Shown here one piece after another: positions 39,744-41,287 of a stretch of DNA of 64,000 nucleotides. Position 1 is the first letter of the stretch, and the number at the start of each line of letters is the position of its first letter. A model generated the notes under the pieces. That model made no database searches and was not told the origin of the DNA. It worked only from the letters and a program-made list of their open reading frames with translations. The DNA comes from Candidatus Onthoplasma sp. (GTDB lineage: Bacteria; Bacillota; Clostridia; Christensenellales; UBA1242): positions 2,916-66,915 of the forward strand of contig JAZQYV010000017.1 in the NCBI GenBank assembly GCA_045633705.1, given 5' to 3'. The position numbers were made by a program, and so were the translations under genes.

Positions 39744-39989
39744 ATGTTGCAAACTACAAAACTTTGTCCAGATTGTAAAGGGGTTATTTGTTGGGATAGT
39801 AGAATTCAAGCGTATAGACACGACTATATTGATGATTGCTGCTATATGGAAAATCTTAATGGAAAACGCATTTGGGACAATGCCAAAAGAGATGAAAGAT
39901 TGCAAAAGTTGAAAGATGGCAAGGCTAAAATAAGGCTTCTTACTGGCGATATTGTTGAAGAAGATGTTGAAGAAAATTTTTTAAGATAA
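39744..39989 (+). CDS. hypothetical small Cys-rich protein
   Basis: 81 aa; CPDC...C...CC pattern, K/E-rich tail; terminator 39996-40022. Confidence 0.5.
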   Translation: MLQTTKLCPDCKGVICWDSRIQAYRHDYIDDCCYMENLNGKRIWDNAKRDERLQKLKDGKAKIRLLTGDIVEEDVEENFLR

Positions 39990-39995
39990 TGATAA

Positions 39996-40022
39996 TAAAA
40001 AGACTTTAATTAGTCTTTTTTT
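39996..40022 (+). terminator. rho-independent terminator
   Basis: AAAAAGACT-ttaatt-AGTCTTTTT. Confidence 0.8.
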
Positions 40023-40042
40023 GTGCAAAAAAATAATGGGTA

Positions 40043-40071
40043 TTGACAAAGAAGGGTTTGTATGTTAGAAT
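40043..40071 (+). promoter_or_regulatory. sigma-70-type promoter with extended -10
   Basis: TTGACA, 17 nt, TGtTAGAAT; the track ORF start 40062 lies inside this promoter. Confidence 0.7.
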
Positions 40072-40094
40072 TAAGCACAAAAGAGGTAAAACAA

Positions 40095-41159
40095 ATGAAT
40101 CGTGAAGAATTTATGAAATTAAATCCTTGTATAAGGAAATCTTCCTGCAGTCAAAGAATTTCACAACAAGACATTCTTGCGCAGGCAATTTTTTTGTCGA
40201 AGCGTAAATTTATTTTTAATAAGTTAAGACAACGTGAAGCTGAACTGTTAAAGTTAAGACTTGGATTAGAAGATGGGAGAGTGCATACACAACTTCAAAT
40301 TGCTGAGTTGTGGGGTGTTTCTACTCCAAGAATACAACAATTAGAGAAATCGGCGTTGCGTAGGCTATCTACAGATGAAAATATAGAGCTATTAATGAAG
40401 TATGATGACACAACCATTGGTAACAGGATTATAAAAACAATGGTTAAGAATTTTAATTATAGGGAATTGATTTTTGAAGACATTCAAAAAGCGTTGTTAA
40501 CAGATAAAATGATTGTTAAAAGAGATGGTAATGTTTCTTCATTGTATATTCCTAGCACTTTTAATGGAAGTATAAAGAAAAAGCTTGTAGCGGGCGGCAT
40601 TACAACGGTTGAACAGTTAATTAAATATTTAAGTCAACATGACAACTTAAAAGAATTTGGATTGGGAGATACCACATATTCATCTGTTATATTTTCAATG
40701 GTTAGACTAATTGAAAACAGAACTGTAGTTATAGCATCAAAAGAACTTTTAGATAGCTATTATGCCAACAAGGCGAAATATTTAAATTATCTTACTGCAA
40801 ATAATCTTACGGACAAGGCAATATTTCCAGAAATTCAAGAGATTGAGGAAGAAATTGAACCAGCACAAAAAGATGAACAGGAAAAGAAAAGTATACTATG
40901 TTTTGCCGAAAAGGTGTTTGGAGCCAATCCTTCAAATGTGCTAATAGATGAATTAAGGTCACGCATAAGTGCAAGATCTTACAATGCACTAAGAAGGGCT
41001 CATATTGTAACAATAAGTGATTTAATCGATTATTATTACAATAACAATAGGGCATTTTCATCGATTAAGGGGATAAGTGCAATCAGTGAAACGGAAATAT
41101 TTGACGCATTGCAAGATGTTGGCCTAGAGCTAACTCAAAATGAACTACAATATGTTTAA
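40095..41159 (+). CDS. chimeric protein: sigma-70 region-4-like HTH plus two alpha-CTD-like modules
   Basis: LRQREAELLKLRLGLEDGRVHTQLQIAELWGVSTPRIQQLEKSALRRL = region 4.2 pattern. KKKLVAGGITTVEQLIKYL and SARSYNALRRAHIVTISDLIDY...IKGISAISETEIFDALQDVGLEL = alpha-CTD pattern. ATG 40095 behind AAAGAGG. Confidence 0.65.
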   Translation: MNREEFMKLNPCIRKSSCSQRISQQDILAQAIFLSKRKFIFNKLRQREAELLKLRLGLEDGRVHTQLQIAELWGVSTPRIQQLEKSALRRLSTDENIELLMKYDDTTIGNRIIKTMVKNFNYRELIFEDIQKALLTDKMIVKRDGNVSSLYIPSTFNGSIKKKLVAGGITTVEQLIKYLSQHDNLKEFGLGDTTYSSVIFSMVRLIENRTVVIASKELLDSYYANKAKYLNYLTANNLTDKAIFPEIQEIEEEIEPAQKDEQEKKSILCFAEKVFGANPSNVLIDELRSRISARSYNALRRAHIVTISDLIDYYYNNNRAFSSIKGISAISETEIFDALQDVGLELTQNELQYV

Positions 41160-41169
41160 GTGTTTAAAG

Positions 41170-41196
41170 ACCTCTATTTATAATAGAGGTTTTTTG
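41170..41196 (+). terminator. rho-independent terminator
   Basis: ACCTCTAT-ttata-ATAGAGGT followed by TTTTT. Confidence 0.8.
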
Positions 41197-41218: not shown

Positions 41219-41247
41219 TTGACATACTGTTTTTTATGTGTTATAAT
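41219..41247 (+). promoter_or_regulatory. sigma-70-type promoter with extended -10
   Basis: TTGACA, 17 nt, TGtTATAAT. Confidence 0.75.
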
Positions 41248-41287
41248 GCAAGTGTTAAGTAAAAATACTTTACAGGGGGGGGCTTGA

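Follow-up and report, generated by a model that had tools for sequence, protein, structure and literature searches.

We analysed a 64 000-nt stretch of DNA from Candidatus Onthoplasma sp. (Clostridia; Christensenellales), positions 2916 to 66 915 of contig JAZQYV010000017.1 in assembly GCA_045633705.1. We call this whole stretch the window and count positions from its first letter. On its forward strand, among the neighbours scpA, scpB, ftsY, ylxM, ffh and rpsP, lies a gene (coding sequence 40095..41159, 354 aa plus stop) situated between ftsY and ylxM-ffh. Its product joins a complete domain 4 of the primary sigma factor type to a C-terminal domain of the RNA polymerase (RNAP) alpha subunit (alphaCTD), with a divergent helical domain and a charged linker between them. 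RNAP reads the DNA that precedes the -10 element through two modules, sigma region 4 and alphaCTD. These are the surfaces contacted by most activators and by many phage takeover proteins. An earlier note, made from the sequence alone, had described the protein as an orphan with a sigma-70 region-4 helix-turn-helix (HTH) and two alphaCTD-like modules. We find that it belongs to a recurrent, rapidly evolving family, for which a role in DNA binding is possible.

Only Sigma70_r4 and RNA_pol_A_CTD are significant among the Pfam matches of the protein. Sigma70_r4 (PF04545) matches residues 42-91 (E 4.9e-7; 29.6 bits against a gathering score of 24.1), and the complete sigma-A-type domain 4, delimited with Pfam, phmmer and Foldseek, spans residues 26-105 (40170..40409, + strand). 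It is made up of a region 4.1 helix, the region 4.2 HTH with its recognition helix at residues 76-91 (40320-40367), and a C-terminal tail helix, LLMKYDD, which we align with the C-terminus of E. coli sigma70, LRSFLDD. The primary-sigma loop GLxDGxxxT is also present. Its best sequence match in PDB is region 4 of Thermus SigA (1rio_H, 1ku3; phmmer E 3e-9, residues 26-95 aligned), with 46% identity to 1rio_H over 56 residues. In Foldseek comparisons, the full-length AlphaFold2 (AF2) model superposes on sigma region 4 with TMt 0.82 for 1ku3 and 0.84-0.89 for 3n97, at a root-mean-square deviation (rmsd) of ~1 Å. The HTH of the earlier note is thus recovered by both profile and fold. The model as a whole has a predicted local distance difference test score (pLDDT) of 76.5 and a predicted template modelling score (pTM) of 0.39, so that the domain arrangement is uncertain. 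An additional conserved segment of 25 residues precedes domain 4. Neither Sigma70_r2 nor Sigma70_r3 matches the protein in Pfam at E<=10, and the NCBIfam sigma models match only via C-terminal stretches of ~60-80 positions (18-38 bits against cut-offs of 240-570); region 2 is absent, as had been noted.

Domain 4 is the most conserved region of the protein across the family (mean pairwise identity 0.38). Residue numbers here and below are those of E. coli; for sigma, our alignment agrees with the phmmer alignment to Thermus SigA. The window protein keeps the equivalents of R562, T583, R586, Q589, E591 and L598. In the family, R562 is kept in 30/35 sequences, G564 in 35/35, T583 (as S or T) in 31/35, E591 in 31/35 and L598 in 34/35, and the tail keeps L607 (33/35), F610 (as Y or F, 35/35) and D612 (33/35). 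The family consensus is EFFKTHxFIF for the region 4.1 helix and LLxxYxDxT for the tail. The net charge of domain 4 averages +2.4 and the proteins are mildly basic. We take R584, E585 and R588 to be the -35 base-reading residues of region 4.2, and R562 and T583 to be contacts to the DNA backbone. At the three base-reading positions the window protein has T77, P78 and Q81. What had been read as an almost textbook -35-binding region 4.2 therefore stands as an HTH domain and fails at its base-reading residues, which are replaced here and variable in the family. The recognition helix of the window protein reads T-P-R-I-Q-Q and shares RIQQ[LI]E with its two closest relatives, a motif conserved in this subclade despite overall identity of 45-49%. 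Among genomes with Ffh more than 90% identical, however, recognition helices span from the sigma-like SRERIRQME to TSQCISIIQ. Judged from these sequences, such hypervariability argues against a fixed -35 specificity. Without region 2, and with the -35 residues not kept, the protein is not a sigma factor.

At the other end of the protein, a canonical alphaCTD with helix-hairpin-helix (HhH) fold occupies residues 284-340 (40944..41114, + strand), as identified with Pfam, NCBIfam rpoA and Foldseek. RNA_pol_A_CTD (PF03118) covers just these residues (E 1.1e-7; 31.9 bits against a gathering score of 23.8), the cyanobacterial RpoA alphaCTD (8syi_A) is a PDB sequence match (E 3e-4), and the AF2 model superposes on the alphaCTD of 9dvt_A (Foldseek TMt 0.84). 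Where E. coli alpha has R265 and N268, the window protein has R294 and N297. Its second hairpin has degenerated, with S328, I330 and S331 in place of G296, K298 and S299. In the family, first modules keep R265 in 28/34, N268 in 22/34 and G296 in 28/34, further modules keep the same residues in 15/19, 15/19 and 16/19, and K298 and S299 are kept in about 40%. The key DNA-contact positions of alphaCTD are among the best conserved columns of an otherwise near-neutral family. The contact that alphaCTD makes with sigma in RNAP is not conserved: N, G or D takes the place of E261, and 12/35 sequences retain sigma R603. Pfam gave no match in the protein to the alpha N-terminal domain (alpha-NTD) models RNA_pol_L and RNA_pol_A_bac, and the rpoA models of NCBIfam align through no more than their final ~70-100 positions (scores of 21-36 bits, cut-offs of 228-406). 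Without the N-terminal dimerisation and assembly domain the protein is not an alpha subunit. Lacking sigma regions 2 and 3 and alpha-NTD in Pfam and NCBIfam alike, it has no known RNAP-assembly determinant, in agreement with the earlier note. That note had also proposed profile searches and structure prediction; the former put both domains above their gathering scores and the latter recovered both folds.

The middle domain (residues 121-236; 40455..40802, + strand), defined with hhalign, the AF2 model and Foldseek, runs from a helix and short strand through a five-helix core (residues ~157-207; 40563-40715) to a second strand and a long helix. The core resembles alphaCTD and SAM domains. When the family's middle module was compared with the family's own alphaCTD by hhalign, the probability was 96% (E 3e-9, 50 columns) against <2% in three control comparisons, and the two family hidden Markov models (HMMs) cross-match at E 0.003 and 1e-4. 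A separate model of residues 121-236 (pLDDT 96.7, pTM 0.87) superposes on alphaCTD 9dvt_A with TMt 0.74 and rmsd 2.0 Å over 62 columns, at a non-significant Foldseek E of 4.9. SAM domains superpose about as well, also with non-significant E, and this model has no significant structural neighbour in PDB. Pfam and PDB sequence profiles made no alphaCTD call here, giving only weak SAM and HhH matches, and the equivalents of R265 and N268 are missing. The second alphaCTD-like module that had been proposed is supported only at the level of family profiles and fold, and is not recognised by Pfam or PDB sequence searches. Relying on these models, we call it a divergent alphaCTD/SAM-like helical domain, set inside a larger fold without a solved counterpart. 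A charged, poorly conserved linker (residues 237-283; 40803..40943, + strand) tethers the C-terminal alphaCTD. Model confidence falls below pLDDT 50 at residues 246-254, and the alignment block of residues 216-280, which overlaps the linker, has the lowest mean pairwise identity of any region (0.15).

The protein is not an orphan. We found a syntenic family of about 46 representative clusters. A word-indexed search gave only four relatives, three of them full-length (35-47% identity) and one of these named 'MAG: hypothetical protein [Clostridia bacterium]' (MAG, metagenome-assembled genome). An exhaustive HMMER scan with the alignment of the relatives gave 379 representatives at E<1e-10, of which 36 reached E<1e-30. 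RNA_pol_A_CTD matches 35 sequences of the 36-member alignment and Sigma70_r4 matches 34. According to the family HMMs the order is constant: N-terminal segment, region 4 (r4), linker, middle domain, then one or more alphaCTDs; the window protein matches all five segments in this order. Members of 413-433 aa carry two alphaCTDs and some carry up to four, for a range of 1-4, while r4 modules number 1-2, with two in P0018 and P0023. This survey of distribution, also suggested in the earlier note, shows the fusion to be recurrent and not confined to one genome. We found no description of the fusion in the open-access papers and preprints searched, and the architecture appears undescribed, as that note had supposed.

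All ten related loci examined (L001-L010) come from MAGs of uncultured Clostridia of animal guts and have the gene between ftsY and ylxM-ffh. A first scan of GTDB representative genomes with alignment A1 gave no match, and a scan with alignment A3 gave two, both in Clostridia MAGs from roe-deer rectum. No relatives of the family were found in GenBank phages or IMG/VR. There are one or two copies of the gene per locus. Tandem paralogue pairs between ftsY and ylxM are found in L005 (4758-7272), L007 (75-2812) and L010 (1510-4042). The tandem genes overlap by 20 nt in L005, and L007 (P0018) and L010 have first copies of 453-459 aa that share 46% identity. Each tandem copy is closer to its positional counterparts in other genomes (40-46% identity) than to its neighbouring paralogue (28-30%), from which it follows that the duplication is old and that both copies were retained. 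In contrast, one metagenome contig (L123, 1817 bp) that is close to the window (amino acid identity 94% for FtsY and 99% for Ffh; DNA identity 87% across ylxM-ffh) has ftsY followed by a ~140-bp non-coding spacer (stop to ylxM ATG) with a terminator hairpin and the ylxM promoter, then ylxM, and lacks the r4-alphaCTD gene. More distant ftsY-ffh loci also lack it. The gene is clade-specific, dispensable (because absent from L123) and very fast-evolving, yet an intact open reading frame (ORF) is maintained.

The rate of change is seen most simply against the neighbours. Relative to the window, the related loci are 90-99% identical in Ffh, 86-96% in FtsY and 86-100% in RpsP, and only 25-47% in the family protein. 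We estimated non-synonymous (dN) and synonymous (dS) divergence by the Nei-Gojobori method; these estimates are approximate since synonymous sites are near saturation in all available pairs. Against an ffh dS of 0.77-1.4, the family has a dN of 0.44-0.97, which amounts to about 0.6-0.7 of the dS of its neighbours, taken as the neutral rate. The dN/dS ratio is about 0.03 for Ffh, about 0.1-0.2 for YlxM and 0.15-0.5 for the family itself. Intact ORFs in all loci together with this last ratio indicate function. The gap between Ffh and this protein makes a clean case for rapid evolution of a DNA- or RNAP-recognition module.

The pairing of modules extends well beyond the family. We surveyed the 156 best-matching representative clusters, of which 46 are the core family and 69 others have both r4 and alphaCTD modules, with r4 preceding alphaCTD in 59 of the 69. 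The remainder comprises 28 with alphaCTD repeats only and 13 with r4 only, the latter including chains of 7-12 tandem r4 modules. Larger proteins join the cassette, by Pfam, to other domains: an SF2 helicase with r4 and 2-3 alphaCTDs (P0044, P0075, P0087), three Spo0A_C domains with r4 and alphaCTDs (P0058), and a complete sigma (r2-r3-r4) with two alphaCTDs behind it (P0101). P0047, P0066 and P0117 are further large uncharacterised proteins of this group. A 255-aa protein with r4 and two alphaCTDs (P0111; L011 6001-6768) is encoded on a 180-kb contig (180 950 bp) that has dozens of small genes without Pfam matches. Several neighbouring genes have matches in phage families (Holliday junction resolvase phrog_1770; NTP pyrophosphohydrolase), and genes for HU, a cold-shock domain protein and SpoVG are also near. 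The contig probably belongs to a large phage or to a mobile element; P0111 itself had no match in IMG/VR and one partial match, covering 24% of the query, in GenBank phages. None of the clusters that were looked up carries a name, so the domain combination is common in sequence space but unannotated. With the cassette in at least 115 of the 156 best clusters, solving one member would annotate a sizeable uncharacterised class in Firmicutes and their phages.

In the window, the gene is equipped as a stand-alone cassette, as the earlier note had it, although this is true of the present genome rather than of all loci. A sigma-A-type promoter (40043..40071, + strand; 11/12 consensus matches) has its -35 TTGACA at 40043-40048, a 17-nt spacer, TG at 40063-40064 and -10 TAGAAT at 40066-40071, and is of the extended -10 type that had been claimed. 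Homologues in L001, L002, L005, L006 and L007 are preceded by equivalent promoters (TTGACAA-N16-TG-N-TATAAT), whereas in L003 and L008 the gene follows ftsY after 21-24 nt without its own promoter. A ribosome-binding site read from the sequence, AAAGAGG (40080..40086, + strand), lies 8 nt 5′ of the ATG at 40095, and L001 and L002 show the same AAAGAGGTAAA..ATG arrangement. The near-consensus promoter and strong ribosome-binding site indicate expression.

The ORF listing gives a longer frame (40062..41159, + strand, 365 aa), and database entry P0001 is this 365-aa form from the ATG at 40062. That ATG falls within the promoter-like site. The N-termini of homologues (MNREEF, MSREEF, MTKEQF) align with M1 of the 354-aa form. 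Because of the placement of AAAGAGG, the homologue N-termini and the location of the upstream ATG inside the promoter, the true start is almost certainly the ATG at 40095.

Terminator-like hairpins with U-runs flank the gene on both sides. The upstream one (39997..40023, + strand), which ends the transcript of ftsY and a small 81-aa ORF, has a stem at 39997-40020 (-7.9 kcal/mol, z -4.0) followed by U7. The downstream one (41166..41196, + strand) comes directly after the stop codon, with a hairpin at 41166-41194 (-13.2 kcal/mol, z -5.1) followed by U6. For each, 0/200 shuffles fold equally well. No Rfam family lies in or around the gene. The only Rfam family in the window is a SAM riboswitch (RF00162, 11891-11975, + strand, 48.5 bits, above gathering). 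We considered whether the gene is a compositional island; none is evident, with 30-33% GC in the gene and 31-42% in its neighbours.

The 81-aa ORF (39744..39989, + strand), which begins 12 nt after the ftsY stop codon and ends before the upstream terminator, is Cys-rich (CPDC...H...CC). A homologue of 81 aa in L008 (6000-6245; 43% identical, E 2e-22) lies directly after the family gene, not before it as in the window. The ORF is not present in the other family loci, nor in L123, and has no Pfam, PHROG or PADLOC match. It may be an associate of the r4 protein, as a putative zinc-binding partner.

Downstream, the ylxM-ffh promoter (41219-41247) is a perfect TTGACA-17-TG-TATAAT, and directly after it is a near-palindrome, TGTTAAGT-N5-TACTTTACA (41253-41274). 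This element is found once in the 64-kb window and once per related locus, always upstream of ylxM. It also occurs, in either orientation and about 330-440 bp upstream of ffh in most cases, in 24 metagenome loci that have Ffh 47-70% identical and no r4-alphaCTD gene; a link between palindrome and gene is rejected on this ground. As RNA it gives a weak hairpin (-4.4 kcal/mol, z -1.2) without an Rfam match. It appears to be a leader or operator element of the ylxM-ffh operon that is widely conserved. The ribosome-binding region of ylxM consists of eight consecutive G (41275-41282), where related loci have GGGGG, GGGG or GGGAGG, and a homopolymer so long may be liable to slippage.

We tentatively favour, as a possibility short of probable, that the protein is a free-standing, RNAP-independent accessory regulator with putative DNA binding, putative targets and a putative regulatory effect. 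What was observed, and from which this reading starts, is which domains are present and how they fold, which residues are conserved, how the family is distributed and how fast it evolves. The alphaCTD-type module, on its flexible charged tether, would anchor the protein in the A/T-rich minor groove in the style of UP-element binding, and the N-terminal sigma-A-derived domain 4 would act as a variable reader, making an HTH contact in the adjacent major groove. The middle alphaCTD/SAM-like domain might serve as a structural or self-association module. By occupying DNA like that upstream of promoters, the protein may modulate sigma-A-dependent initiation through occlusion or recruitment; alternatively it may coat A/T-rich DNA. 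HTH specificity would not be fixed, with the canonical -35-reading residues replaced here, and would diversify fast between close relatives, and the family would supply a dispensable, clade-specific, fast-evolving accessory function. This reading builds on the earlier idea of a promoter-occupying competitor or recruiter, which remains plausible where the family is concerned. Several results support it: both flanking domains significantly match DNA-binding modules, no known RNAP-assembly determinant is present, the key alphaCTD contact positions stand out as conserved, the R562 and T583 positions are retained in a domain 4 of positive charge, RIQQ[LI]E is kept within the window's subclade, and the cassette is fused elsewhere to domains that act on or bind DNA. 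The promoter, ribosome-binding site and intact ORFs described above speak for an expressed and functional gene. The variation in copies of alphaCTD (1-4) and r4 (1-2) is as expected for avidity-based DNA binders. PDB 3n97, in which alphaCTD and sigma region 4 are together on UP/-35 DNA, is among the top structural matches and demonstrates that DNA can accommodate both parent modules next to each other. If the reading is right, a protein with both modules and no RNAP assembly would be a new type of regulator, using the same DNA or partner surfaces as the polymerase.

A number of observations weigh against this. The -35 base-reading positions are the least conserved of domain 4 (R584 kept in 9/35, E585 in 15/35, R588 in 11/35), which leaves an HTH without one conserved specificity, and the recognition helices of some orthologues have no basic residue (TSQCISIIQ in L008, NIVTITRFE in L003); the HTH may not bind DNA in all members. 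G296 and K298 are lost from the second alphaCTD hairpin of the window protein. Upstream of family genes we found nothing conserved beyond ordinary promoters and no DNA target; the one conserved element nearby is the ylxM leader palindrome, shared with 24 loci that lack the gene. Finally, conservation within domain 4 is highest in the hydrophobic core, in helix 1 and in the tail helix, the elements which in sigma form the groove that binds the beta flap. This conservation pattern fits equally well with a protein that binds RNAP.

In that case domain 4 would dock on the beta-flap tip helix of core or holoenzyme and compete with or replace sigma-A region 4, and the alphaCTDs would add upstream DNA contacts, altering promoter preference, for example towards extended -10 promoters. 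The retention of a whole domain 4, region 4.1 helix and tail included, while base-reading residues vary is in keeping with this, as is its position as the most conserved region, and the relative P0101 is a complete sigma with two alphaCTDs. There is precedent in single-HTH proteins that bind the beta flap (PMC7824862). However, the conserved positions double as the hydrophobic core of the fold, so they are not specific evidence, and the conserved N-terminal 25 residues may, speculatively, fill the groove intramolecularly. The gene is moreover dispensable, being absent in L123, and Pfam revealed no sigma region 2 partner among neighbouring genes in eight loci. We judge RNAP binding, the main alternative, to be rather unlikely. 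A different use of the same surfaces would be in conflict: the protein might mimic the promoter-recognition face of RNAP (sigma-A domain 4 plus alphaCTD) in an arms race between host and phage, these being the two RNAP surfaces that phages attack or exploit most often. It would serve as decoy or sensor towards phage proteins that capture region 4 or alphaCTD, or would silence invading DNA by occupying its -35 and UP sites. Phage factors do target alpha (Alt, ModA, Rac) and sigma region 4 (AsiA) (PMC7824862), and PDB 4g6d, phage G1 ORF67 with S. aureus sigma-A domain 4, is among the structural matches. BREX proteins have alphaCTD-like and sigma-HTH domains (PMC12839542), and PADLOC PglW models match relatives. 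If true, conflict would explain the near-neutral divergence in a fixed chromosomal slot beside slowly changing Ffh, the hypervariable recognition helix, the variation in copy number and presence (tandem copies diverged to 28-30% identity; no gene in L123) and the occurrence of the cassette on phage-like contigs such as that of P0111 and in helicase fusions. It would account best for rate, turnover and phage-borne cassettes; we hold it to be distinctly improbable. The gene sits among housekeeping genes, not in a defence island, and the protein has no effector domain. PHROGs gave only a sigma r4 match, and PADLOC only a 13.7-bit match to the r4 part of MzaA, with no full-length defence model. 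Membership in a phage or defence system is not supported, with matches at the domain level only, no relatives in the phage databases and a housekeeping neighbourhood. The proteins are basic, unlike acidic mimics, and with synonymous sites saturated a high rate alone is not proof of positive selection.

The neighbourhood itself could suggest an accessory protein of the signal recognition particle (SRP), acting with FtsY and Ffh or regulating the ylxM-ffh operon, like the sigma-r4-like YlxM. All ten related loci place the gene in the interval from ftsY to ylxM-ffh, and right behind it comes a strong ylxM promoter with its conserved palindromic element. Since these genomes are so close (Ffh 90-99%), a shared position is expected by descent and is not evidence of an SRP link; we reject synteny as an argument for SRP function on this basis and because L123, with Ffh 99% identical, lacks the gene, as do more distant ftsY-ffh loci. 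The palindrome likewise stands upstream of ffh in 24 loci without the gene, and the protein has no UPF0122 match, nor does the family r4 HMM find YlxM. An SRP role is very unlikely. We give just as little credence to a decaying, functionless gene, a drifting relic of domain shuffling, to which the near-neutral rate relative to neighbours' dS, the loss from a close relative and the degenerate contact residues of the window protein might point. Against it, the ORF is full-length and intact in every locus despite synonymous saturation, the family has its own dN/dS below 1 (0.15-0.5, as above), domain cores and surface residues such as R265 are retained, promoter and ribosome-binding site are strong, and both tandem paralogues are retained across species. 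What makes the finding interesting is less the single gene than the family: these r4+alphaCTD proteins form an uncharacterised class that evolves rapidly.

Comparison with known systems begins with the two parents. Region 4 of the primary sigma (SigA/RpoD; Thermus SigA on -35 DNA, PDB 1KU7/1KU3) has the same fold and is a clear sequence relative. Unlike the primary sigma, the protein lacks regions 1-3, and so has no region-2 core binding or -10 melting; T, P and Q replace R584, E585 and R588, positions that are hypervariable in the family, and there is an extra conserved N-terminal segment of 25 residues. With the alphaCTD of RNAP the protein has in common the fold, the R265 and N268 equivalents and attachment through a flexible linker. 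In contrast to alpha, it has no alpha-NTD and hence no dimerisation or RNAP assembly, G296 and K298 are S and I, the 261 determinant that contacts sigma R603 is not conserved, and relatives carry one to four copies of alphaCTD.

B. subtilis has a split sigma, SigO-RsoA. In contrast to that pair, no region-2-like partner is found beside our gene by Pfam in eight loci, and the adjacent 81-aa ORF has no Pfam match. Phage minimal sigmas and T4 gp33 are single-HTH proteins that bind the beta flap and lack region 2 (PMC7824862). These small proteins are in essence one domain-4-like HTH, and share with the present protein the lack of region 2; they act within RNAP and have no alphaCTD modules, and the present family is chromosomal.

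Sigma-type HTHs outside sigma factors, as here, are known in YlxM (UPF0122), in the C-terminal domain of WhiA (PMC10243135) and in the N-terminal Sigma-HTH of BrxL (PMC12839542). Unlike our protein, none of the three, as described there, is fused to alphaCTD. YlxM of the window matches Sigma70_r4 and, at E 3e-18, PF04297 (UPF0122). We considered and rejected derivation of r4 from this neighbour: the r4-alphaCTD protein has no PF04297 match at E<=10, the r4 HMM misses YlxM, and the primary-sigma loop and tail are present. For alphaCTD, the precedent outside RNAP is PglW of type 2 BREX, with an alphaCTD-like helical DNA-binding domain (PMC12839542). PADLOC PglW models match alphaCTD modules of P0111 and P0013, and the window protein has no PglW match. 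PglW is a kinase-containing defence protein of 1400-1600 aa, and the likeness is limited to the domain. YlxM, WhiA, BrxL and PglW thus each reuse one of the two modules, and none combines both as the present family does.

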